Shown piece by piece: positions 3,238-20,881 of a DNA stretch of 23,516 nt (position 1 is the stretch's first letter; each line of letters begins with the position of its first letter). The stretch comes from a virus. Taxonomy: Duplodnaviria > Heunggongvirae > Uroviricota > Caudoviricetes. A program made the position numbers and the translations under genes. The stretch lies in the IMG/VR virus record IMGVR_UViG_2585427772_000010. The stretch is one strand, 5' to 3'. A model generated the notes under the pieces. It was not told the origin of the DNA, ran no database searches, and saw only the letters and a program-made list of their open reading frames with translations.

Positions 3238-3509
3238 GTATTCGTATTGAAATTGGCGAACGTTATGTCGTTACCAGTGACAGCTTTCAGTTTATTCTCC
3301 ACGAGAAAAAGAGAGCGGAAAGCGGTAAAAACGCCGGTCAGGAATGGCTGGCGGTGGTTGGTTATTACCCGAAATTAAGCCAGCTCGTTTCCGGCCTGAT
3401 GCATCACGATATTCTGACCGGAAGCGCAAAGTCTTTTGCTGATTTAAACGGGCAGGTTGAGCAACTCAGCAAGCGTTGTTCAGAGGCTTTTGGCTCATAT
3501 GGCCGTTAA
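3234..3509 (+). CDS. Hypothetical early protein (P2 orf83 position)
   Basis: 91-aa ORF, start overlaps orf82 stop; 3' end overlaps the A start by 11 nt. Confidence 0.55.
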   Translation: MSIRIEIGERYVVTSDSFQFILHEKKRAESGKNAGQEWLAVVGYYPKLSQLVSGLMHHDILTGSAKSFADLNGQVEQLSKRCSEAFGSYGR

Positions 3510-5778
3510 AGCCTCCGGGCGTTTTGTCCCTCCGTCAGCATTTGCCGCAGGCACCGGTAAGACGTTTACCGGTGCTTATGCATGGAACGCGCCACGCGAG
3601 GCCGTCGGGCGCGAAAGACCCCTTACACGTGACGAGATGCGTCAGGTGCAAGGTGTTTTATCCACGATTAACCGCCTGCCTTACTTTTTGCGTTCGCTGT
3701 TTACTTCACGCTATGACTACATCCGGCGCAATAAAAGCCCGGTGCACGGGTTTTATTTCCTCACATCCACTTTTCAGCGTCGTTTATGGCCGCGCATTGA
3801 GCGCGTGAATCAGCGCCATGAAATGAACACCGACGCGTCGTTACTGTTTCTGGCAGAGCGTGACCACTATGCGCGCCTGCCGGGAATGAATGACAAGGAG
3901 CTGAAAAAATTTGCCGCCCGTATCTCATCGCAGCTTTTCATGATGTATGAGGAACTCTGCGATGCCTGGGTGGATGCCCATGGCGAAAAAGAATCGCTGT
4001 TTACGGATGAGGCGCAGGCTCACCTGTATGGTCATGTTGCTGGCGCTGCACGTGCTTTCAATATTTCCCCGCTCTACTGGAAAAAATACCGTAAAGGACA
4101 GATGACCACGAGGCAGGCATATTCTGCCATTGCCCGCCTGTTTAACGATGAGTGGTGGACTCATCAGCTTAAAGGCCAGCGTATGCGCTGGCATGAGGCG
4201 TTACTGATTGCTGTCGGGGAGGTCAATAAAGACCGTTCTCCTTATGCCAGTAAACATGCCATTCGTGATGTGCGTGCACGCCGCCAGGCAAATCTGGAAT
4301 TTCTTAAATCGTGTGACCTTGAAAACAGGGAAACCGGCGAGCGCATCGACCTTATCAGTAAGGTGATGGGCAGTATTTCTAATCCTGAAATTCGCCGGAT
4401 GGAGCTGATGAACACCATTGCCGGTATTGAGCGTTACGCCGCAGCAGAGGGTGATGTGGGGATGTTTATCACGCTGACCGCGCCGTCAAAGTATCACCCG
4501 ACACGTCAGGTCGGAAAAGGCGAAAGTAAAACCGTCCAGCTAAATCACGGCTGGAACGATGAGGCATTTAATCCAAAGGATGCGCAGCGTTATCTCTGCC
4601 ATATCTGGAGCCTGATGCGCACGGCATTCAAGGATAATGATTTACAGGTCTACGGTTTGCGTGTCGTCGAGCCACACCACGACGGAACGCCGCACTGGCA
4701 TATGATGCTTTTTTGTAATCCACGCCAGCGTAACCAGATTATTGAAATCATGCGTCGCTATGCGCTCAAAGAGGATGGCGACGAAAGAGGAGCCGCGCGA
4801 AACCGTTTTCAGGCAAAACACCTTAACCGGGGCGGTGCTGCGGGATATATCGCGAAATACATCTCAAAAAACATCGACGGCTATGCACTGGATGGTCAGC
4901 TCGATAATGATACCGGTAGGCCGCTGAAAGACACAGCTGCGGCTGTTACCGCATGGGCGTCAACGTGGCGCATTCCGCAATTTAAAACGGTTGGTCTGCC
5001 GACAATGGGGGCTTACCGTGAACTACGCAAATTGCCTCGCGGCGTCAGCATTGCTGATGAGTTTGACGAGCGCGTCGAGGCTGCACGCGCCGCTGCAGAC
5101 AGTGGTGATTTTGCGTTGTATATCAGCGCGCAGGGCGGGGCAAATGTCCCGCGCGATTGTCAGACTGTCAGGGTCGCCCGTAGCCCGTCGGATGACGTTA
5201 ACGAGTACGAGGAAGAAGTCGAGAGAGTGGTCGGCATTTACGCGCCGCATCTCGGCGCGCGTCATATTCATATCACCAGAACGACGGACTGGCGCATTGT
5301 TCCGAAAGTGCCGGTCGTTGAGCCTTTGACTTTAAAAAGCGGCATCGCCGCGCCTCGGAGTCCTGTCAATAACTGTGGAAAGCTCACCGGTGGTGATACT
5401 TCGTTACCGGCTCCCACACCTTCTGAGCACGCCGCAGCAGTGCTTAATCTGGTTGATGACGGTGTTATTGAATGGAATGACCAGGAGGTCGTGAGGGCGC
5501 TCAGGGGCGCATTAAAACGAGGTCTGAGAAGACCAAACCGTCAGCAAAGAAACGGAAGCCCGTTAAAACAGCATGAAATGGCACCATCGGCCAGACTGAC
5601 CCGGTCAGAACGAATGCAAATTACCCGTATCCGCGTTGACCTTGCTCAGAACGGTATCAGGCCGCAGCGATGGGAGCTTGAGGCGCTGGCGCGTGGAGCA
5701 ATTGTAAATTACGACGGGAAAAAATTCACGTATCCAGTCGCTGATGAGTGGCGGGGATTCTCAGCAGTAATGGAGTGA
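3499..5778 (+). CDS. A: Replication initiation protein A (rolling-circle HUH endonuclease)
   Basis: Long ORF; start placed at the internal ATG 3499 (MAVKASGRF...) by comparison with P2 A as I recall it; contains an HUH-like motif (PHWHMML) and a tyrosine pair (GYIAKYISK) expected for rolling-circle initiators. Confidence 0.9.
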   Translation: MAVKASGRFVPPSAFAAGTGKTFTGAYAWNAPREAVGRERPLTRDEMRQVQGVLSTINRLPYFLRSLFTSRYDYIRRNKSPVHGFYFLTSTFQRRLWPRIERVNQRHEMNTDASLLFLAERDHYARLPGMNDKELKKFAARISSQLFMMYEELCDAWVDAHGEKESLFTDEAQAHLYGHVAGAARAFNISPLYWKKYRKGQMTTRQAYSAIARLFNDEWWTHQLKGQRMRWHEALLIAVGEVNKDRSPYASKHAIRDVRARRQANLEFLKSCDLENRETGERIDLISKVMGSISNPEIRRMELMNTIAGIERYAAAEGDVGMFITLTAPSKYHPTRQVGKGESKTVQLNHGWNDEAFNPKDAQRYLCHIWSLMRTAFKDNDLQVYGLRVVEPHHDGTPHWHMMLFCNPRQRNQIIEIMRRYALKEDGDERGAARNRFQAKHLNRGGAAGYIAKYISKNIDGYALDGQLDNDTGRPLKDTAAAVTAWASTWRIPQFKTVGLPTMGAYRELRKLPRGVSIADEFDERVEAARAAADSGDFALYISAQGGANVPRDCQTVRVARSPSDDVNEYEEEVERVVGIYAPHLGARHIHITRTTDWRIVPKVPVVEPLTLKSGIAAPRSPVNNCGKLTGGDTSLPAPTPSEHAAAVLNLVDDGVIEWNDQEVVRALRGALKRGLRRPNRQQRNGSPLKQHEMAPSARLTRSERMQITRIRVDLAQNGIRPQRWELEALARGAIVNYDGKKFTYPVADEWRGFSAVME

Positions 5779-6107
5779 ACGTCGCCAGTTGCGAAAATTA
5801 TTTACAGGGGGCAGCGTTAAGCATCTAAAGATCTTGTTCTATGATTAGAATGTTTCCTCGTTGCACTCTCGTATAGTTATTTAATGGGAAGATGTACTCT
5901 ATATGTTGTGTTTTGGTGATAAATGAAGCCAAAGGAAGGAGATTTTGCTTGATTGATGGGCGCTCTTTGCTATACACCTTGTATTGAGAAGGAGAAGTAA
6001 TCAAGGATTAAGCTGGCTTTTGTCAAAAATCTGAAAAGCTTTTTTGACTGAATACGATAGCGAGTTGTACTATTTGCGCCCTCAAAAGTAACCGGCGGCT
6101 GGGTAAA

Positions 6108-6482
6108 ATGGGGAAGCAAGGCAAAGGCAAAGGCAACAAAAATCAGGTTAAGGTTACGTGGGCTCAGGCGTGGCGGGATGTAATGATAAGAGCCATGTCT
6201 AATGGTCAGTTGATACCTATTACCATCAGTATTATTTTAATGATTGCTGCATGGAGGTTACCAAAAACAGACTTGTCCAATTTAGCCTTCTCTATTGTTG
6301 ATGGCTTTAAGGAGCATTCCTTGGTTGGTTGGGCTATCTCGGTAATAGTGGGTTTGGCTTGGTCTGCACATGCGCGAATCATGAGGCGCTGTTTTAGTTC
6401 CGAGGCACAGAGAATCGGTAACGAGAAAACAAAGTATCAACAAAGACAGACCACTCAAGCCTTGGGTACAAGTGATAAATAG
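6108..6482 (+). CDS. Small membrane protein with two predicted TM helices (cargo gene 1)
   Basis: 124-aa ORF; lysine-rich N-terminus, hydrophobic segments LIPITISIILMIAAW and LVGWAISVIVGLAWSA; AT-rich; start uncertain (alternative ATGs at 6183 and 6195). Confidence 0.5.
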   Translation: MGKQGKGKGNKNQVKVTWAQAWRDVMIRAMSNGQLIPITISIILMIAAWRLPKTDLSNLAFSIVDGFKEHSLVGWAISVIVGLAWSAHARIMRRCFSSEAQRIGNEKTKYQQRQTTQALGTSDK

Positions 6483-6502
6483 TTGTTTATTTAGGAGTTA
6501 TT

Positions 6503-7060
6503 ATGCTGACAGTGCTGTTTTATGTGCTGTTGGGTTTAGGCGCAGCACACTTCATTTACGAGCGAATCATTTTGCCGTCCATCCGACTTCATTATAGAAA
6601 CCAATTGTTTGCGCTTCGTGATGTCGCTAGGAGGAAAATCATTGATGGAGGTTCCGATACTTCCATGCAAGCGGCAACACTTGTGCATGACTCATTGAAT
6701 AACGCTATCAATAGATTGCATTTACTCACGTTGCCAAACAAATTTCGTGCTCAAAAGCGTATGGCAGAAAACCATGCAATAAGGCAGAAAATTCGGCGTG
6801 AGATAGATGTTTTCAAACGCTGTGATGATAGAGAAGTTGTTGATGTACTGTTTAAATCCGGTCGGATACTTGAAAATGTACTGTTATTCAATAGCTTAAT
6901 GTTATTGCTTTACATGTTTCCATTTGTCCTTGCTGTATGGTTCTGTGTTAGGGTCATAAAGACAGCAAGTAGTTTAGTACAGTGGGTCAAAGGAAGAGAT
7001 TTAGAGGAAGCTATAATGCTGCTTCCTGATACTCAGGTTGAAAAGGTTGTATACGCATAA
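6503..7060 (+). CDS. Membrane protein with N- and C-terminal hydrophobic helices (cargo gene 2)
   Basis: 185-aa ORF; AGGAG 6 nt upstream of the ATG; 20-nt gap from gene 1 (operon); hydrophobic N-terminus (LTVLFYVLLGLGAAHFIY) and C-proximal helix (LLFNSLMLLLYMFPFVLAVWFCV); followed by a terminator. Confidence 0.65.
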   Translation: MLTVLFYVLLGLGAAHFIYERIILPSIRLHYRNQLFALRDVARRKIIDGGSDTSMQAATLVHDSLNNAINRLHLLTLPNKFRAQKRMAENHAIRQKIRREIDVFKRCDDREVVDVLFKSGRILENVLLFNSLMLLLYMFPFVLAVWFCVRVIKTASSLVQWVKGRDLEEAIMLLPDTQVEKVVYA

Positions 7061-7089
7061 AAATCACCCCTTAGGGGGTGATTTTTTTA
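7061..7089 (+). terminator. Rho-independent terminator
   Basis: ATCACCCC-TTAG-GGGGTGAT hairpin followed by a 7-T run immediately after the 6503-7060 stop. Confidence 0.7.
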
Positions 7090-7299
7090 CATGACTTTTG
7101 ATTAGCTGACATTGTAAATCCGCATGTATCAGATGCATTGTTTTGCATGTGGAAATGGGTGTTTTCACTGCCAGCTATCGCTACATGTAGCAAAAACACG
7201 GGCTTAATAAGAAATCATTCTGCCATAAGGCATAACTTCCCCGCGTGCTCAGGTATTGACGTCATAGATATGGATCTTTTTTAATCAAGGTATGGTATT

Positions 7300-8247
7300 A
7301 TGAAGATATTTATTAGTTGGTCAGGTCAGGACAGCCTGGAGATAGCAAAAGTATTACGGGATTGGATACCGAATGTTATTCAAGTAGCTGAGCCGTACGT
7401 ATCAGCGGAAGATATTGATAAAGGCACTCGCTGGGCGACTGATATATCAAAGGAACTTGATGACTCTTCTTATGGGATTATTTGCCTTACAAAAAATAAT
7501 ATTAATGCACCGTGGATAAATTTTGAGGCGGGGGCTTTAGGTAAAAAGGTTGATAAGAGCCGGGTTAGTCCTTTCTTGTTTAAAATTAAACCATCTGAGA
7601 TAACAGGCCCAATATTACAATTCCAGTATACTCGTTCGGATGATAAGAACGATATTTTGAAGTTGATGTTGTCAATAAATAATCAAGCAGGATTTTTGAC
7701 TGAAGAACGCTTAACTAAAGCTTTCGAGCAATGGTGGCCAAGTTTAGAGCGTGAGTTAGATAACATTCAAGATATTAACCCTGTAGATAAAGATTCCACT
7801 AAAAAAACAAAAGGTGATTCGACTTCTGAGATACAAAATCTTTCCAAAATTGTTGAAAGTTTGCTGGATATTAGCCGAACAAATCACCAATTATTGCGTG
7901 ATCCAGCATCATTATTGCCAGAAGAATATGTTAGCAAAATAATAAACAGGGAAGGGCGTAAAGAAACTGTTTTAAAAATTGTAGCTTCTGATTTATTATC
8001 CATGCATCATTCACTAATTCGTGTAAAAAGAAGATTTATTCGTCGTGGTATTGATGAAACATCTAGGAGCGAGTTAATTGAATCATTAAATAAAATGATA
8101 ATGGATTGTTCTAGAGTAATCGCTCACTTAGATAATTATTGTGGGGCTTCATCAAACAATATGTTCAATAGTGCGCTTAGATTGCGGACCAGAAATTTAA
8201 TTGACATGATGGATGAGGAGGATGCAGAACGGGATGAAATGGAATAA
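7300..8247 (+). CDS. TIR-like domain protein with uncharacterised helical C-terminal half (cargo gene 3)
   Basis: 315-aa ORF; N-terminal ~130 aa carries the bacterial TIR-like pattern (KIFISWSGQD ... GIICLTKNN ... PWINFEAG) with a glutamate at the position of the catalytic Glu of TIR NADases; C-terminal ~170 aa is charged/helical and unrecognised. The domain call is from motif reading only. Confidence 0.6.
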   Translation: MKIFISWSGQDSLEIAKVLRDWIPNVIQVAEPYVSAEDIDKGTRWATDISKELDDSSYGIICLTKNNINAPWINFEAGALGKKVDKSRVSPFLFKIKPSEITGPILQFQYTRSDDKNDILKLMLSINNQAGFLTEERLTKAFEQWWPSLERELDNIQDINPVDKDSTKKTKGDSTSEIQNLSKIVESLLDISRTNHQLLRDPASLLPEEYVSKIINREGRKETVLKIVASDLLSMHHSLIRVKRRFIRRGIDETSRSELIESLNKMIMDCSRVIAHLDNYCGASSNNMFNSALRLRTRNLIDMMDEEDAERDEME

Positions 8248-8791
8248 TCAATTTTGACTAATCATAAATAATTTTGCATATATAAACTTATAATGCCGCA
8301 GCCGCTATTTTTCAGCGGCTGTATATCGCTTATAATGGGTATGTTATTTTTATTTTGATAAAATCATTAAAATTGTCGATGTTATATGAATGCACATGTA
8401 TTATTAATGTTAGAAGATTATGCCTGCTTACGGCTATTGTGCTGAATTCAACTATGAACGCATCAGTATTAAAATCGTTCCATGAAATGTTCTTCGTCTA
8501 CAGCAGATGATGGGCAACGAAAAAATGACGCTGAGTGAGTTGGTCGGGGAGAATTGTTAGAGGTATTTATGGAGTGGTTTAATAATATCGGTCAATCCTG
8601 AGTTGCAGCATCACATAGACGATAGGGAATCTCTCCAGTCGTTCTGGAATGGCAGCGTTGAACAACAAGCACAGCGAGGCGTTAGATGCCCATCAGATTG
8701 ACACAGAGGGTTTATGAATCGCTGGGATTTACTTAGTTTGAAAAATAATATATTTATATGTTTTTGTATTGTGTTTGTTAAGGAGTTTGGA

Positions 8792-8998
8792 TTGAAAAGA
8801 AAACTGATTTGTGTTATGGCTTTTTGGGGGGCGTTGCTGGCTGGTTGTAATGAGAGTAATAAAAAAGAAGTTGAGGGTTGTATTGAAAGAGGTGTCCAAT
8901 ATTTTATAGAGATTGGTTCTTACCCTAAATTAAGTGATGGGCGTGATGCTGTAAAAGTTGCTACTGAACGTTGTAATAGAACAATAACGGCTTTCTGA
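8792..8998 (+). CDS. Small predicted lipoprotein (cargo gene 4)
   Basis: Track ORF 8714-8998; preferred start is the in-frame TTG at 8792, preceded by AAGGAG (8780-8785), giving a classical lipoprotein signal peptide (KRK, hydrophobic core, lipobox LLAG-C); about 49-aa mature protein with three further Cys. Confidence 0.5.
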   Translation: MKRKLICVMAFWGALLAGCNESNKKEVEGCIERGVQYFIEIGSYPKLSDGRDAVKVATERCNRTITAF

Positions 8999-9000
8999 TA

Positions 9001-9918
9001 ATGGATTATACGAGCTATATAATAGGACAGCTTCAGGTTGAGGATATTATTGATGCAATTAAAGGCGTTAATAATACTAATGTCATAAAAGATTATGTGC
9101 TGCCTGTAGTATTACCAATTATATCTTCTGTGCTGAGTTACTTTATTGCAACTAGGTTGTTTTATCGGCAGGAGGACCTTAAAGCACAAAGAAGAAAGGT
9201 AAGCGTTGTAAATAAATGTATTTATGACTACTTTTCTGCAATGACAACGTTGTTGCAAATTAAAGGGAATTATTATGGTGGGGTAAGTATAAGTGAAAAT
9301 CCTATCGAGAGGGCTTTAGCTTTTCCTGTTGTGGTTTTTTCTGGTGCTCCTCTATCATCAGATTTAAGTGAGTTGGCCTGTATATTGAGTCAAAAGGGAG
9401 TAGGGAATAATAGAGAGCCAGCAAAGACTACTAACTGGGGGGATGCTTTTGCTGTTAGTGATATAGCAAGAAGGTTTAACAGCCTATTGGCTGCATTAAA
9501 TGTTAGGAATGATTTTGATGACACCTATAGAGGAATGATTATTGAATCAACAGGTTCACCTTTGCCTACGATGCGTTTTAAAAATGATGATATTGTTAAT
9601 GCTATAGGTAGTAATAAGGCAGCTTATTACATTGATATTACTGAGCAAATAATGATTATGATAGATGTTTTGTTGCTTGATATTAATCTGTTGCTCAAAG
9701 AGTTGCCATTGTATGCTGAATCGCTGTTTGACAAAAGAGTAATGCAAGAAGATTCAGGGATTCTTAAATTCAATGATTTGCACGAACGTTTTCCTCTACT
9801 TATGAAACCTGTAACGCCACCTTCGATTAAACTCATGTCTGATTATTTGGGGTACAGTGAAGATGAGATCTTACGACGCTATCCATACCCGTTCTTTAAT
9901 ATGCATGATTGTGAATGA
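9001..9918 (+). CDS. Uncharacterised 305-aa protein with one N-proximal TM helix (cargo gene 5)
   Basis: ATG 2 nt after the lipoprotein stop (coupled); hydrophobic segment VLPVVLPIISSVLSYFIATRLF; AT-rich; no family recognised. Confidence 0.7.
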   Translation: MDYTSYIIGQLQVEDIIDAIKGVNNTNVIKDYVLPVVLPIISSVLSYFIATRLFYRQEDLKAQRRKVSVVNKCIYDYFSAMTTLLQIKGNYYGGVSISENPIERALAFPVVVFSGAPLSSDLSELACILSQKGVGNNREPAKTTNWGDAFAVSDIARRFNSLLAALNVRNDFDDTYRGMIIESTGSPLPTMRFKNDDIVNAIGSNKAAYYIDITEQIMIMIDVLLLDINLLLKELPLYAESLFDKRVMQEDSGILKFNDLHERFPLLMKPVTPPSIKLMSDYLGYSEDEILRRYPYPFFNMHDCE

Positions 9919-10021
9919 ATGTGCATATGTCAGAAGCCGTTTTTATTGTCAGTTATCGTCAGTGCTGGCGCGCTCTTGGAGTGTTCATGCAACTGCATTA
10001 AAACCGCCCCACGAAGCGGGC

Positions 10022-10040
10022 GGGCGAGGCGGGGAAAGCA
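10022..10040. other. cos site (19-nt cohesive-end sequence of P2-type phages)
   Basis: Exact GGCGAGGCGGGGAAAGCAC, which I recall as the P2/P4 cohesive end, in the expected position between the old/tin locus and Q. Confidence 0.6.
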
Positions 10041-10171
10041 CTGCGCGCTGGCGGGGGTGATGATTGTCTGAGCGCGTCGTGATGGCGTTTAGATTGTGCG
10101 CCGGGGCGTTGGTGTGTCTGCGGGGTGTTTTGTACAGTGGCGAGCGTGTGAGGGCGTGATGACGGGGGTGT

Positions 10172-10198: not shown

Positions 10199-11233
10199 TC
10201 AGCCGTTGTCAGTGTCCAGTGAGTAGTTTTTAAAGCGGATGACCTCCTGACCGAGCCAGCCGTTTATTTCCCGAATCCTGTCCTGTAACGGGATAAGTTC
10301 ATTGCGGACAAAGACCTTTGCCACTTTCTCAATATCGCCCAGCGACCCGACGTTTTCCGGCTTGCCACCCATCAACTGAAAGGGGATGCGGTGCGCGTCC
10401 AGCAGGTCAGCGGCGCTGGCTTTTTTGATATTAAAAAAATCGTCCTTCGTGGCCACTTCACTGAGCGGGATAATTTTAATGCCGTCGGCTTTTCCCTGTG
10501 GGGCATAGAGAAACAGGTTTTTAAAGTTATTGCGGCCTTTCGACTTCACCATGTTTTCGCGGAGCATTTCGATATCGTTGCGATCCTGCACGGCATCAGT
10601 GACGTACATGATGTATCCGGCATGTGCGCCGTTTTCGTAATACTTGCGGCGGAACAGCGTGGCCGACTCATTCAGCCAGGCAGAGTTAAGGGCGCTGAGA
10701 TATTCCGGCAGACCGTACAGCTCCTGATTAATATCCGGCTCCAGCAGGTGAAACACGGAGCCGGGCGCGAAAGGTGTCGGCTCGTTGAAGGACGGCACCC
10801 ACCAGTAAACATCCTCCTCCACGCCACGGCGGGGATATTTTGCCGGGGAGGGTTCCAGTCTGATGACCTTACCGGTGGTGCTGTAACGCTTTTCCAGAAA
10901 CGCATTACCGAATACCAGAAAATCCAGCACAAAGCGGCTGAAATCCTGCTGAGAAAGCCACGGGTGTGGGATAAACGTTGAGGCCAGAATGTTACGTTTG
11001 ACGTAAATCGGTGAGCTGTGATGCACGGCAGCACGCAGGCTTTTTGCCAGACCGGTAAAGCTGACTGGTGGCTCATACCATCTGCCGTTACTGATGCACT
11101 CGACGTAATCCAGAATGTCACGGCGGTCGAGTACCGGCACCGGCTCACCAAAGGTGAATGCCTCCATTTTCGGGGCGCTGGCGGTCATTTTTTTTGCCGC
11201 AGGTTGCGGTGTTTTCCCTTTTTTCTTGCTCAT
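10199..11233 (-). CDS. Q: Portal protein Q
   Basis: 344-aa ORF, same length and position as P2 Q; start ATG overlaps the P stop (TGATG). Confidence 0.9.
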   Translation of the reverse strand: MSKKKGKTPQPAAKKMTASAPKMEAFTFGEPVPVLDRRDILDYVECISNGRWYEPPVSFTGLAKSLRAAVHHSSPIYVKRNILASTFIPHPWLSQQDFSRFVLDFLVFGNAFLEKRYSTTGKVIRLEPSPAKYPRRGVEEDVYWWVPSFNEPTPFAPGSVFHLLEPDINQELYGLPEYLSALNSAWLNESATLFRRKYYENGAHAGYIMYVTDAVQDRNDIEMLRENMVKSKGRNNFKNLFLYAPQGKADGIKIIPLSEVATKDDFFNIKKASAADLLDAHRIPFQLMGGKPENVGSLGDIEKVAKVFVRNELIPLQDRIREINGWLGQEVIRFKNYSLDTDNG

Positions 11234-11795
11234 CAGTAAAACTCCAGAATGGTGGATGTCAGCGGGGTGCTGATACCGGCGGTGAGTGGCTCATTTAACA
11301 GGGCGTGCATGGTCGCCCAGGCGAGGTCGGCGTGGCTGGCTTCCTCGCTACGGCTGGCCTCATAGGTGGCGCTGCGTCCGCTGCTGGTCATGGTCTTGCG
11401 GATAGCCATGAACGAGCTGGTGATGTCGGTGGCGCTGCGTCCGCTGCTGGTCATGGTCTTGCGGATAGCCATGAACGAGCTGGTGATGTCGGTGGCGCTG
11501 ACGTCATATTCCAGACAGCCACGGCGGATGACGTCTTTTGCCTTGAGCACCATTGCGGTTTTCATTTCCGGCGTGTAGCGGATATCGCGTGCGGCGGGAT
11601 AGAACGAGCGCACGAGCTGGAACACGCCGACACCGAGGCCGGTGGCATCAATTCCGATGTATTCGACGTTGTATTTTTCGGTGAGTTTGCGGATGGATTC
11701 CGCCTGAGTGGCAAAGTCCATGCCTTTCCACTGGTGACGCTCAAGTATTCTGAATTTACCTCCGGCCACCACCGGCGGTGCCAGCACCACGCATC
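11233..11795 (-). pseudogene. P: Terminase large subunit P, C-terminal fragment only, carrying an in-frame 63-bp tandem duplication
   Basis: Only ~185 codons remain of a gene that is ~590 codons in P2; the reading frame runs into the K fragment on the other strand; the upstream promoter and N-terminal part are absent. Confidence 0.8.
11368..11493. repeat. Perfect 63-bp tandem duplication (2 copies) inside the P remnant
   Basis: 11368-11430 and 11431-11493 are identical; the 10-mer GGTGGCGCTG precedes each copy and a partial third GGCGCTG follows; encodes a duplicated 21-aa segment (SATDITSSFMAIRKTMTSSGR). Confidence 0.9.
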
Positions 11796-11797
11796 CG

Positions 11798-12250
11798 GCG
11801 CTGGCCGTGTCCGAAGGGACGGCGAATCATCCGCTGACGAAAAACCGGGGCTATGACGTGATAGTCACCGGACTGGACGGAAAGCCGGAAATTTTCACCG
11901 ACTACAGTGACCACCCGTTCGCACATGGTCGACCGGCGAAGGTGTTTAACCGTCGCGGTGAAAAATCCACGGCCTCCGGTCGCTATCAGCAGCTTTACCT
12001 GTTCTGGCCGCATTACCGCAAACAGCTTGCCCTGCCGGATTTCAGTCCGTTGTCACAGGACAGGCTCGCCATTCAGTTGATCCGCGAACGCGGTGCACTG
12101 GATGACATCCGGGCGGGACGCATTGAGCGCGCCATTTCACGCTGTCGCAATATCTGGGCGTCCCTGCCGGGTGCCGGTTACGGTCAGCGTGAGCATCCAC
12201 TGGAAAAACTGGTCACCGTCTGGCGTACCGCCGGCGGCGTACCGGCTTAA
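11798..12250 (+). pseudogene. K: Endolysin K (lambda R-like lytic transglycosylase), 5'-truncated
   Basis: Translation (SEGTANHPLTKNRGYDVIV ... IWASLPGAGYGQ) aligns with lambda R from about its residue 17 onward; the catalytic-Glu motif SEGT is retained but the N-terminus, RBS and upstream holin gene are missing. Confidence 0.75.
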
Positions 12251-14194: not shown

Positions 14195-14980
14195 TTATGA
14201 GTGATTTTTATTTGATGCTTTGTATTCTAAAACCTTCTTATTGGCGTAAAAGAATTTTGTATATGACAGGAATATAACCAGACCTGAAGTGAAATAGACG
14301 AGGGATAGTATTAATAATGCTTTTTTGCGACTGTTATTATCTTTAATCTCCAGGCTTAACCATTCGGAGTCCTCCTCGTTTAGCTGTAAGAGCTTATTGC
14401 AGGCGATTTCAGGAAGTGTGTCTTTTATAAATACGTTTTGCAGTCTCTTGCAATCGGCAAGGCTATAAGTTTTATTAAATTCAACTGCTTTATTTTTGAA
14501 GGATAAAAGAACTTTGTCACTATAAACATAGTACATCATGTTTTTATATGGTATGCCTATGGCATCCCTTACTATAACGGATTGTTCGTTGTGTATGTAA
14601 CATGCGAGGAGAATGTAAAAAATACTGGCCAGAATTACAATTATTGTTTTAATTATGTGTGGTGGTTTTGTTATGTCACCCCAGATGCGAGTAAGGAAAA
14701 AATACGATGTTTTTAGTTTTCCATCAATCAGTCCCTGCTGTATCATTCTCACATTTTCAATGCCTGATACATTGATTCCGTTAATTATTTTAAATAGTTG
14801 AATGTCGCGCCACTCGCGGTCAAGTCTTTTTAATTTTTTGTCTGAATATCCAAAATTGAAATAATGTGCAATAAGCCTCATAAGGTTACTTTTACCAAAG
14901 CTAAAAAATGCTAATACTGCAAAGCTACAAAGGAAAAAAACGATTAGCCCCCACACATTAGTCACATTATAGCTGACCAT
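14195..14980 (-). CDS. AT-rich multi-pass membrane protein at the orf30 position, antisense to the late genes
   Basis: 261-aa ORF; AAGGAGAG 5 nt upstream of the ATG on the minus strand; about three hydrophobic helices; composition visibly more AT-rich than flanking S and V. Confidence 0.7.
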   Translation of the reverse strand: MVSYNVTNVWGLIVFFLCSFAVLAFFSFGKSNLMRLIAHYFNFGYSDKKLKRLDREWRDIQLFKIINGINVSGIENVRMIQQGLIDGKLKTSYFFLTRIWGDITKPPHIIKTIIVILASIFYILLACYIHNEQSVIVRDAIGIPYKNMMYYVYSDKVLLSFKNKAVEFNKTYSLADCKRLQNVFIKDTLPEIACNKLLQLNEEDSEWLSLEIKDNNSRKKALLILSLVYFTSGLVIFLSYTKFFYANKKVLEYKASNKNHS

Positions 14981-14989
14981 TACGCTCTC

Positions 14990-15060
14990 CTTGAATGTTG
15001 TCTGGTAGTTCTACAAATGAATCCAGATAGCATAACTTTTATATATTGTGCAATCTCACA
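14990..15060 (+). promoter_or_regulatory. Candidate late promoter upstream of V (P_V)
   Basis: Imperfect dyad TTGTCTGGTAGTTCTACAA about 50-60 bp upstream of V and an AT-rich -10-like TATATAT; P2 has an Ogr-dependent late promoter at this position. Spacing does not exactly match the TGT-N12-ACA consensus as I recall it. Confidence 0.3.
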
Positions 15061-15063
15061 TGC

Positions 15064-15699
15064 ATGAACACTCTCGCAAATATTCAGGAACTCGCGCGCG
15101 CACTGCGCAACATGATTCGCACCGGCATTATCGTCGAAACCGACCTTAACGCCGGTCGCTGCCGCGTGCAGACCGGCGGCATGTGCACCGACTGGCTTCA
15201 GTGGCTGACCCATCGCGCCGGTCGTTCGCGCACATGGTGGGCACCTTCCGTGGGGGAACAGGTGCTGATTCTGTCCGTGGGCGGTGAACTCGACACGGCG
15301 TTTGTTCTGCCGGGGATTTATTCCGGCGATAATCCCGCGCCGTCTGCGTCGGCGGATGCCCTGCATATCCGTTTCCCTGACGGGGCGGTGATTGAGTATG
15401 AACCCGAAACCAGTGCGCTCACGGTAAGCGGAATTAAAACGGCCAGCGTGACGGCTTCCGGTTCTGTTACTGCCACTGTGCCGGTGGTCATGGTGAAAGC
15501 GTCAACCCGCATCACCCTGGACACACCGGAGGTGGTCTGCACCAACAGGCTGATTACCGGCACGCTGGAAGTGCAGAAGGGCGGGACGATGCGCGGCAAC
15601 ATTGAACACACCGGCGGTGAACTCTCATCAAACGGTAAGGTACTGCATACCCATAAACACCCCGGCGACAGCGGCGGCACAACCGGGAGTCCTCTATGA
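15064..15699 (+). CDS. V: Baseplate spike/assembly protein V
   Basis: Start at internal ATG 15064 (MNTLANIQ...) of track ORF 15046-15699; 211 aa, as in P2 V. Confidence 0.85.
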   Translation: MNTLANIQELARALRNMIRTGIIVETDLNAGRCRVQTGGMCTDWLQWLTHRAGRSRTWWAPSVGEQVLILSVGGELDTAFVLPGIYSGDNPAPSASADALHIRFPDGAVIEYEPETSALTVSGIKTASVTASGSVTATVPVVMVKASTRITLDTPEVVCTNRLITGTLEVQKGGTMRGNIEHTGGELSSNGKVLHTHKHPGDSGGTTGSPL

Positions 15700-16047: not shown

Positions 16048-16956
16048 ATGCCGATTATCGACCTGAACCAGCTACCCGCACCGGATGTGGTCGAGGAGCT
16101 GGACTTTGAAACCATTCTTGCCGAACGCAAGGCGACACTGATTTCCCTTTACCCGGAAGACCAGCAGGAGGTGGTCGCCCGTACCCTGACGCTGGAATCG
16201 GAGCCTCTCGTCAAACTGCTGGAAGAAAATGCTTATCGTGAGCTTATCTGGCGTCAGCGTGTGAATGAGGCCGCACGGGCGGTGATGCTGGCCTGTGCCG
16301 CCGGTAATGACCTTGATGTGATTGGTGCCAATTACAACACCACACGCCTGATTATCATCCCGGCAGATGATTCGACCATCCCGCCGACACCGGCAGTGAT
16401 GGAATCTGACACCGATTATCGTCTGCGTATTCAGCAGGCGTTTGAAGGTTTAAGCGTTGCCGGGTCGGTGGGAGCCTATCAGTATCATGGTCGCAGTGCC
16501 GACGGGCGTGTCGCGGATATCTCTGTCACCAGTCCGTCTCCGGCCTGTGTCACTATCTCCGTGCTGTCCCGAGAAAATAACGGTGTCGCATCCGAAGACC
16601 TGCTGGCTGTGGTGCGTAACGCTCTTAATGGCGAGGACGTCAGGCCGGTGGCTGACCGTGTGACCGTGCAGTCTGCCGCCATTGTTGAATACCAGATAAA
16701 CGCCACGCTGTATCTTTACCCTGGTCCAGAAAGCGAACCCATCCGCGCCGCCGCCGTGAAAAAACTGGAAGCGTACATCACGGCACAGCACCGGCTGGGG
16801 CGCGACATCCGTCTGTCTGCCATTTATGCCGCTTTGCATGTGGAAGGCGTGCAGCGTGTCGAACTGACTGCACCGCTGGCTGACATCGTGCTCAACAGTA
16901 CGCAGGCGTCTTTCTGCACCGAATACAGCGTCGTGACCGGAGGCTCGGATGAGTGA
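16048..16956 (+). CDS. J: Baseplate protein J
   Basis: 302-aa ORF, same length and position as P2 J. Confidence 0.9.
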   Translation: MPIIDLNQLPAPDVVEELDFETILAERKATLISLYPEDQQEVVARTLTLESEPLVKLLEENAYRELIWRQRVNEAARAVMLACAAGNDLDVIGANYNTTRLIIIPADDSTIPPTPAVMESDTDYRLRIQQAFEGLSVAGSVGAYQYHGRSADGRVADISVTSPSPACVTISVLSRENNGVASEDLLAVVRNALNGEDVRPVADRVTVQSAAIVEYQINATLYLYPGPESEPIRAAAVKKLEAYITAQHRLGRDIRLSAIYAALHVEGVQRVELTAPLADIVLNSTQASFCTEYSVVTGGSDE

Positions 16957-20287: not shown

Positions 20288-20881
20288 ATGTTTACTAAGC
20301 GACGATTAAAAAATATTAACTGGGAGGCAAGTTCAGTGATTCTTGCTATGGTTCTCTTTGTTGGAAATATATTTTATACAAATCATCGTGATGATATAAG
20401 CATGGAGGCTGAGAGGGACAGTATCAGAACAATGTTTGCATATGAAATCGCTAATAACCATCGCGCTCTCACTTTTCTTGATAAAACGAGACATATTGGC
20501 TTTGACGAAAATTCGGAGCATTTTGTTGGCGAGCCTTTTGCCATTAATGTCAAATCATTAGGGGGACCTCGCTTACAGATTGCATTAAACCAGACTGATA
20601 AAGTGTTTAAATCCTACTTCGGCGAATTAAGTAAGCTTGATAAAGAGGATGTTACTCTTCTTATGGACTATTACCATGAGCAAAGCATCCTGCTGGAGCG
20701 TGTAAAATCTACGTTACAGAAGATGAAAAGTGGTAATGATATTAAAGTTGATATTGATGGTTGCTTATTAGAAGAACACTTCATGAATGAGCTTAATCTT
20801 TCTAATATTTTGCTTAAACGCTATAGCTATTTATTATCACAACACGCTAAGGAACATAAAACAAAAGATTTACATAATTGA
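20288..20881 (+). CDS. AT-rich membrane-anchored protein at the Z/fun position
   Basis: 197-aa ORF; AAGGTG 5 nt upstream of the ATG; single N-terminal TM helix (SSVILAMVLFVGNIFY); flanked by AT-rich intergenic DNA between G and the FI remnant. Confidence 0.65.
   Translation: MFTKRRLKNINWEASSVILAMVLFVGNIFYTNHRDDISMEAERDSIRTMFAYEIANNHRALTFLDKTRHIGFDENSEHFVGEPFAINVKSLGGPRLQIALNQTDKVFKSYFGELSKLDKEDVTLLMDYYHEQSILLERVKSTLQKMKSGNDIKVDIDGCLLEEHFMNELNLSNILLKRYSYLLSQHAKEHKTKDLHN

Follow-up and report, generated by a model that had tools for sequence, protein, structure and literature searches.

A conserved lipoprotein and membrane-protein gene pair next to cos in P2-like prophages is a candidate phage-defence cassette

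The window analysed here, a 23,516-nucleotide stretch of virus DNA (IMG/VR record IMGVR_UViG_2585427772_000010), is a P2-like prophage of Escherichia coli, and our subject is a pair of plus-strand genes within it, one encoding a 68-amino-acid (aa) prolipoprotein (8792-8998) and the other a 305-aa predicted bitopic inner-membrane protein (9001-9918). We find that these two genes constitute a real, conserved accessory cassette of enterobacterial P2-like phages, which is separable from the three-gene TIR defence module lying upstream of it. As to function, we regard a defence role as plausible, with the pair a credible but unproven candidate, and put the probability that it is anti-phage in some way (phage exclusion by the lysogen) at about one half. 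Lending support to this estimate are the hotspot site, the modularity of the cassette, the linkage of its genes, the topology of their products, the neighbours of their relatives, and a DefensePredictor listing. The superinfection-exclusion or abortive-infection role put forward in the initial annotation of this DNA has location and neighbours as its only grounds, and is not established.

The lipoprotein gene is preceded by a Shine-Dalgarno sequence, AAGGAG, at 8780-8785 with a 6-nt spacer to the TTG start codon at 8792, and it finishes with the TGA stop codon at 8996-8998. At its N-terminus the product has a predicted signal peptide, MKRKLICVMAFWGALLAG (residues 1-18, 8792-8845), made up of a KRK n-region, a 12-residue h-region, and the lipobox L-A-G-C (LLAG before C), with cleavage predicted before CNES and Cys19 (8846-8848) as the predicted site of lipidation. 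As read from the sequence, the 68-aa product carries the signal of a bacterial lipoprotein (a substrate of Lgt, LspA, and Lnt), which we defined as [LVI][ASTVIG][GAS]C about 15-25 residues from the start, along with a positive n-region and a hydrophobic h-region. Lipoboxes are also found in the homologues at three diverged P2-like loci (L004, L008, and L016) and in most of 19 distant homologues. Here, it should be said that RefSeq uses the ATG at 8714 (a 94-aa form) for most copies, with the 68-aa form being annotated in strain MS 16-3. The start at 8792 is nonetheless better supported, because a start codon is kept at the homologous position, with TTG used in the window, ATG in strain MS 16-3, and GTG in Salmonella, and because the signal peptides of the diverged homologues, though equal in length, are unrelated and have no homologous extension upstream. 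Moreover, when the window is compared with Salmonella, the 26-codon extension shows 7 differences in 26 residues, as against 1 of 50 in the mature part, and the MS 16-3 annotation points the same way. On the start-codon, signal-peptide, and divergence evidence, the 94-aa open reading frame (ORF) was rejected as the true product. The TTG start, its AAGGAG, and the LLAG-C lipobox are therefore present just where the initial annotation had them, with the start favoured by the codon variants.

The mature lipoprotein of 50 aa contains the cysteine to be lipidated and two invariant cysteines (C12 and C43 of the mature chain), which probably form one disulfide. The earlier description of this part as cysteine-rich was thus overstated. 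An AlphaFold2 (AF2) model of the mature chain, based on a 4-sequence alignment, has a predicted local distance difference test score (pLDDT) of 85 and a helix-loop-helix structure, with helices at residues 3-22 and 35-48. As predicted directly from its sequence, the lipoprotein would present a 40-aa helical hairpin to the periplasm, tethered by about 10 residues. It is a full-length member of PHROG 32041 (E 9.5e-38), which is annotated as of unknown function. With regard to localisation, an Asp at position +2 after the lipidated cysteine causes E. coli lipoproteins to be retained in the inner membrane (Lol avoidance). The residue at this position in the window is Asn (C-N-E, 8849-8851), as also in E. 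coli MS 16-3 (locus L002) and Salmonella (locus L005), and predicts sorting to the outer membrane, whereas the diverged lineages have Asp (C-D-D in L004, C-D-N in L008 and L016), which predicts the inner membrane. The window lipoprotein thus lacks the Lol-avoidance residue, and its localisation is ambiguous.

Only 2 nt (‘TA’) separate the TGA of the lipoprotein gene from the ATG at 9001 that begins the gene for the 305-aa protein. In the latter protein, the most hydrophobic stretch, residues 33-54 (nt 9097-9162), is the predicted transmembrane (TM) helix. A second hydrophobic stretch, residues 213-237, contains the conserved acidic residues E215 and D222 and forms a bundle helix, rather than a TM helix, in the structural model. 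This AF2 model, built from an 82-sequence family alignment, has a pLDDT of 89 and a predicted template-modelling score (pTM) of 0.82. In it, a helix at the N-terminus (5-23) is followed by one of 68 residues (28-95), the first part of which is the TM segment; residues 149-184 and 204-242 form two more long helices, and several short helices complete the model. Overall, an amphipathic N-tail (about 30 aa) leads into the TM helix, after which comes an all-alpha bundle of about 250 aa. The 2-nt gap first described for this gene is present, as is, by prediction, the single N-proximal TM helix. Among the invariant or near-invariant residues are Y32, P35, N71, L84, K88, Y91, P101, R104, N158, R169, E215, and D222. 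In the family, lysine and arginine are more frequent after the TM helix than before it (mean 3.67 vs 1.87); 68 of the 82 members show this bias, as does the window protein itself (5 vs 2). The bias predicts an N-out/C-in arrangement, with about 25-30 residues of N-tail in the periplasm and the bundle in the cytoplasm. With its single hydrophobic helix and Lys/Arg-rich C-terminal flank, the protein has the features of a bitopic N-out/C-in protein as a matter of prediction, and the bundle is probably cytoplasmic. No catalytic domain was recognisable in the 305 aa. The protein is a full-length member of PHROG 21267 (E 6.6e-149), likewise annotated as of unknown function. The pair was earlier labelled ‘envelope-associated’; as read from sequence, it comprises a lipoprotein and a single-pass membrane protein, with the greater part of the 305 aa predicted to be cytoplasmic.

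That both ORFs are real genes, not chance ones, is indicated by ratios of non-synonymous to synonymous substitution rates (dN/dS) of 0.15-0.38 for the lipoprotein gene and 0.10-0.27 for the 305-aa gene across three lineages (0.10-0.38 over the diverged pairs) and by the membership of each in a conserved family; an ORF artefact was rejected on the same evidence. The three lineages are related at 52-60% aa identity, and in all of them the lipoprotein gene comes first and the large gene second, with an intergenic spacing of 2 nt in the window and 33-34 nt in the diverged lineages. In addition, the pairwise identities of both genes group the lineages identically, with purifying selection acting on both. 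The two genes can accordingly be described, as they were at the outset, as a coupled and conserved pair, given the gene order kept throughout.

The surroundings of the pair differ from one prophage to another. Salmonella prophages carry it without a TIR module and with essentially no other cargo specific to the hotspot. In E. coli MS 16-3, a DUF3850 gene and then a small ORF come before the pair, and an unrelated gene of 333 aa comes after it. This last gene (L002, 7588-8589) lies between the cassette and cos, with a junction corresponding to window 10048-10066, and has no significant family match. A diverged version of the pair (locus L004, large protein 57% identical in aa sequence) stands directly after gpA, with a 433-aa MauJ/DzbB-like neighbour. 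The gene for this neighbour (L004, 1808-3109), which is downstream of the pair, matches Pfam MauJ (E 3.6e-6, 28.3 bits vs the 28-bit cut-off) and shows a weak likeness to Dazbog DzbB (PADLOC, E 2e-4), and may be a hotspot defence candidate in its own right. A third version (52-53%) has essentially no companion cargo in E. coli CP058063, in four enterotoxigenic E. coli (ETEC) genomes, or in E. albertii, and four IMG/VR P2-like contigs carry the pair as well. By blastn against the TIR-less loci, the cassette is separable and extends from 8642 to about 10048, ending next to cos. Its nucleotide homology with the MS 16-3 and Salmonella loci starts at window 8642, and both of these have a GC-rich hairpin directly before the matching point. 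The conserved 5' leader (8642-8791, plus strand) includes the AAGGAG and an AT-rich stretch, and the spacer from the cassette to cos (9919-10022, plus strand) is conserved along with the cassette in the same blastn comparison. No convincing sigma-70 site came out of a promoter scan of 8642-8791; the nearest promoter-like site (8309-8336, 10 of 12 matches) is outside the cassette, in the 394-bp spacer (8248-8641) between the TIR gene and the cassette. The same spacer carries a 54-bp remnant (8495-8548, 87% identity) of a 77-aa gene that precedes the cassette in Salmonella, and this points to a recombination scar.

Upstream of the pair is the three-gene defence system Rst_2TM_1TM_TIR (6108-8247, plus strand), in which PADLOC recognised the ORFs 6108-6482 as 2TM-TIR (2.2e-58), 6503-7060 as 1TM-TIR (2.7e-75), and 7300-8247 as TIR-TM (2.3e-118), the TIR gene having its stop at 8247. 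The cassette itself is rare, being present in 15 + 4 = 19 of 5426 complete E. coli genomes, and in this set the AC1-type TIR module was never without the pair (14 of 14 with it). Such co-occurrence, together with a single TM helix in the 305-aa protein like that of the presumed effectors of the TIR system, would suit the pair being an accessory part of the 2TM-1TM-TIR system, e.g., an extra membrane effector with its regulator. This we hold to be very unlikely. In fact, the 14 copies are at least 99.4% identical over 3.85 kb and so represent one clonal arrangement, the three TIR genes alone reproduce the defence of the lysogen, and Salmonella, MS 16-3, the ETEC strains, and E. albertii carry the pair with no TIR module. 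A 545-bp spacer with the gene remnant, moreover, comes between the TIR module and the pair, and a comparison of the 305-aa family with the 1TM protein of the TIR system by hhalign showed no relation (probability 1.4%). The pair as a component of the TIR system by homology was also rejected, since the PADLOC models match 6108-8247 and not the pair.

To place the two proteins among described families, we searched with both their sequences and their models. Neither had a significant match in Pfam, PADLOC, or NCBIfam, and neither matched PADLOC-DB v2.0.0, including its PDC candidates, at E<=1. Pfam and PADLOC searches with 82 members of the 305-aa family gave nothing consistent, there being five isolated marginal PADLOC matches (E 0.0025-0.009) that are confined to TM segments, and a Pfam search with 24 lipoprotein relatives was equally inconsistent. 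A profile search against PDB sequences returned nothing, as did Foldseek searches at E<=0.001 against BFVD and, with the mature lipoprotein model, against the PDB, and the AF2 model of the 305-aa protein had no specific fold match. For the lipoprotein, the best NCBIfam match was EexN, an entry-exclusion lipoprotein, at E 0.06 and 13.2 bits against a cut-off of 33, and it involved signal-peptide residues only. Membership in the EexN, TraT, TrbK, Cor, or Llp exclusion families was rejected, with the match being below the EexN cut-off and Pfam and structural matches lacking. The earlier remark that the pair resembles no nameable family is borne out by these homology and structure searches, which found no described family or defence system.

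Both proteins do belong to wider families. While a word-indexed search with the 305-aa protein found just its own cluster and the 57% relative, an exhaustive hidden Markov model search retrieved 201 clusters at E<=1e-3, with 113 still present at E<=1e-10; with few exceptions, these proteins are 270-320 aa long and match over their full length. The mature domain of the lipoprotein (family alignment of 24 sequences) recurs at 43-63% identity in Nitrosospira, Acinetobacter, Tepidiphilus, Sphingomonas, Massilia, Idiomarina, Gemmatimonadota, and others, usually behind a lipobox and a variable low-complexity tether. Its pattern is C-x3-G-x2-YF-x2-IGSYP-x-L ... G-R-x-A-x2-VA-x-ERC-x-R-T-x-TAF, in which two cysteines are invariant. 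The family nearly always terminates at T-x-T-A-F (window 8987-8995), and the free C-terminal Phe may be functional, e.g., recognised by a periplasmic PDZ protein, though this is pure speculation.

Both genes occur together only in enterobacterial P2-like loci; a 305-family gene is present in 0 of 23 lipoprotein loci outside P2-like elements, and the lipoprotein in 0 of 8 sampled distant contexts of the 305-aa family. That each family is so widespread without the other would be expected if two unrelated single-gene functions were co-travelling from one ancestral insertion, and, since a single phage lineage accounts for every locus with both genes, their linkage may reflect identity by descent. 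On the other hand, lineages that are now 52-60% identical in aa sequence still have the genes in the same order and close together, in a hotspot whose other cargo is freely reshuffled, and the two genes diverge in step, so we consider mere co-travelling to be improbable.

Among the distant members of the 305-aa family, one (P0009 in locus L011) is directly downstream of a PDC-S67 homologue, another is beside a type I restriction-modification (RM) specificity (S) subunit, and three others are associated with islands, the first a small one holding a TIR protein together with a RadC fragment, the second holding RES toxins and Imm11/Imm49, and the third holding a Mor gene and having the family member at its edge; three more are solitary insertions between housekeeping genes. 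The PDC-S67 homologue (L011, 500-1147) is a 215-aa single-TM protein (E 1.2e-22) that may form a different two-gene membrane module, and hhalign detected no relation between the 305-aa family and the PDC-S67-like protein. Lone relatives of the lipoprotein were found directly downstream of an OLD-family ATPase-TOPRIM nuclease (L025, Telluria sp.), beside a DUF4236 and a DUF3644-like protein, and, in an IMG/VR viral contig (L044), between a resolvase/Hypoth_Ymh and a GmrSD-HNH enzyme with an EcoRI-type methylase. Such neighbours are suggestive of a defence link through guilt by association, as judged from a small sample without statistics.

The position of the cassette in the prophage is also telling. 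The gene for the gpA replication protein (3457-5778, Pfam Phage_GPA 1.6e-124) precedes, and the portal gene (10199-11233, minus strand) follows, a hotspot whose right edge, outside the cassette, is a P2-type cos cohesive-end sequence at 10023-10041 (plus strand). This is an exact single match to the 19-nt cos sequence of P2, with 0 matches in 100 shuffles. In alignment, the linear record of phage P2_AC1 terminates at window 10022, and the end of that phage matches window 5701-10022 at 99.6% identity. The gpA-to-cos stretch has a GC content of 0.32-0.43, and the pair one of 0.36-0.39, as compared with 0.53-0.60 in the phage backbone; an AT-rich pair between the TIR module (ending at 8247) and cos is thus what the window holds, in line with the first reading of the sequence. 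The gpA-gpQ, cos-proximal hotspot of P2-like phages was described by Rousset et al. 2022 (PMC9122126), and houses old, tin, and many validated defence systems (PMC9122126). In the related P4 hotspot, 6 of 8 randomly picked unknown loci were protective (PMC13586616).

Prior work touches on these genes at several points. Rst_2TM_1TM_TIR was validated as a three-gene clone from phage AC1, and just those three genes were cloned from the locus (PMC9122126). The pair appears in Table S5A of Rousset et al. 2022 as ‘hypothetical + hypothetical’ only (PMC9122126). In Table S10 of the DefensePredictor study, the 305-aa protein (WP_023140581.1) is listed as a ‘putative novel defense gene’ with a mean log-odds of 4.84 at a cut-off of 4 (PMC13092281), and it is among 1,041 uncharacterised predicted defence clusters, with no significant remote homology (PMC13092281). 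A search of a literature library by accession and topic found no description of the pair or its accessions. The earlier view of this locus as the part of the window most likely to be undescribed stands as far as that search goes, and less so in that Rousset Table S5A and DefensePredictor already list the genes.

For how an anti-phage pair might work, we tentatively favour a module at the inner membrane, expressed by the lysogen, in a sensor/effector arrangement whose mechanism we infer. The 305-aa protein would be the core component, since other bacteria encode relatives of it with no lipoprotein alongside, and would act as a membrane-anchored sensor or effector. On infection, it might perturb the membrane or engage a phage component at the inner membrane and so halt the infection. 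The lipoprotein would be an add-on gained in the P2 lineage, and could couple to or restrain the 305-aa protein from the periplasmic side, either as a sensor of the tail or of DNA entry or as a modulator. With most of the 305-aa protein predicted to be cytoplasmic, such an arrangement fits at least as well as classic surface exclusion. A more elaborate version, which we hold to be rather doubtful, is an envelope-spanning relay in which the lipoprotein senses tail penetration or DNA entry and signals through the periplasmic N-tail to a cytoplasmic bundle effector, this effector founding a family of at least 200 clusters that elsewhere would serve as a single-gene defence.

Several observations weigh against a defence role or against the arrangement just described. 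An AC1 lysogen resists only lambda and LF82_P8 from a panel of lambda, T4, P1, 186, CLB_P2, LF82_P8, AL505_P2, and T7 (PMC9122126), and, as the three-gene TIR clone reproduces both resistances, the pair has no visible phenotype on that panel. The P2 hotspot cargo includes non-defence genes too, namely partition systems and the cytolethal distending toxin (CDT) (PMC9122126). DefensePredictor draws on neighbouring genes and had an overall validation of 45%, higher with a higher score (PMC13092281); the score of WP_023140581.1 is borderline, barely above the cut-off, and its neighbours here are a TIR system. About half of the sampled distant contexts of the 305-aa family are flanked by housekeeping genes and are uninformative, and no conserved neighbour of the lipoprotein family was found. 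Lacking a consensus promoter inside the cassette, expression in the lysogen is assumed. Finally, if the window lipoprotein is sorted to the outer membrane, its 10-residue tether could not reach an inner-membrane partner across the periplasm.

Classical superinfection exclusion, in which the pair would block receptor use or genome translocation of an incoming phage or mobile DNA without cell killing, strikes us as unlikely. Analogues of this kind are TraT/TraS of F, Imm/Sp of T4, Llp of T5, Cor of phi80, and Ltp of S. thermophilus. A lipoprotein and an inner-membrane protein in a prophage hotspot, with the lipoprotein domain being extracytoplasmic and strongly conserved, are what such systems would lead one to expect, and even the best NCBIfam match, not significant as it is, was to EexN. 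However, no known exclusion protein resembles the pair in sequence or fold, and the AC1 lysogen has no extra resistance phenotype. A predicted cytoplasmic part of about 250 residues out of 305 is also out of the ordinary for a protein that blocks entry. Moreover, both families are widespread outside prophages, on the chromosomes of distant phyla and without each other, whereas the known exclusion proteins are, to our knowledge, narrow and phage-specific.

We judge it similarly improbable that the cassette is a non-defence moron that alters the lysogen envelope for host fitness (stress, serum or bile resistance, colonisation) and has no part in phage conflict. Bor and Lom of lambda are envelope-altering morons. 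The partition and toxin genes in the hotspot and the absence of an AC1 phage phenotype attributable to the pair are compatible with this, as are the several family members between housekeeping genes, and a conserved cellular target is suggested by the mature lipoprotein domain, which is still 45-63% identical between E. coli phages and Nitrosospira, Sphingomonas, and Gemmatimonadota. Set against these are the rarity of the cassette in E. coli, its unrelated hosts (dog, duck, pigeon, chicken, calf, pig, human), which give no niche signal, and the several relatives of both families that adjoin defence or conflict genes.

Should the anti-phage reading prove right, two unannotated families would join the defence catalogue, the first a one-TM helical bundle (about 290 aa) represented by at least 201 clusters at 50% identity, and the second a lipoprotein hairpin domain of about 40 aa across Proteobacteria and Gemmatimonadota. 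There would also be a tractable E. coli model for a periplasm-to-cytoplasm relay during infection, and the well-studied AC1 locus would hold a second system, overlooked when just the TIR genes were cloned. If the pair is not protective, it is one more prophage moron. With about 1,000 uncharacterised predicted-defensive clusters in E. coli alone, the pair is useful without being exceptional, and is well suited to a simple cloning test.

Elsewhere in the window, the prophage proves to be defective. In the region 11233-12250, the terminase gene gpP has been cut to a 185-aa C-terminal remnant (Terminase_6C), joined directly at 11803/11810 to DNA matching a gene (16049-16546) of the Salmonella locus L005. 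The latter gene is just past the holin and has no Pfam match, and is presumably the P2 lysozyme gene K. About 5.3 kb has been lost in comparison with an intact Salmonella relative, and with it the remainder of gpP, four capsid genes (O, N, M, and L), gene X, and the holin. The terminase remnant also contains a 63-bp tandem duplication at 11365-11505 (2.2 copies, 98% match), by which 21 codons are duplicated in frame. On the minus strand at 14195-15366, an AT-rich (GC 0.35-0.40) insert of two apparently coupled genes (261 aa and 128 aa) is found among the late (lysis/tail) genes; neither protein matches Pfam or PADLOC, and the insert could be a second accessory cassette. Another putative accessory gene is an AT-rich ORF of 197 aa (20288-20881) after the tail-fibre genes, again without a Pfam or PADLOC match, in what is presumably the Z/fun slot of the P2 map. 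An Rfam scan of the whole window gave no matches, and a repeat scan of 8200-10100 nothing meaningful.

When set beside described systems, the pair is unrelated to them by sequence and fold, though it fits known kinds, as prophage hotspot cargo and as a lipoprotein with an inner-membrane partner. Full-length membership in PHROG 21267 and PHROG 32041 supplies a label and no function. With the exclusion systems of F (TraT/TraS), T4 (Imm/Sp), T5 (Llp), phi80 and N15 (Cor), IncN (EexN), IncP (TrbK), and S. thermophilus (Ltp), the pair has in common a small lipoprotein of a mobile element that adjoins or acts with an inner-membrane protein and is plausibly expressed in the carrier. It differs from these in having no sequence or fold similarity to them, in its large cytoplasmic helical domain, and in the spread of its families outside mobile elements. 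The 305-aa protein is like the TM effectors of abortive infection (CBASS, Pycsar, and retron effectors, the Rst TM partners, and lactococcal AbiP) in its N-terminal membrane anchor and cytoplasmic domain, and its relatives, too, are solitary in variable islands by RM, TIR, RES, or PDC-S67 genes. It is unlike them in lacking both homology and a sensor or signalling partner besides the lipoprotein. To other cargo of the P2 hotspot (old, tin, and the Rst_* systems), the pair has no sequence relationship, nor any PADLOC match. It does, however, occupy the same slot, is likewise small and AT-rich, is exchanged as a cassette among similar P2-like prophages, and adjoins the validated Rst_2TM_1TM_TIR.

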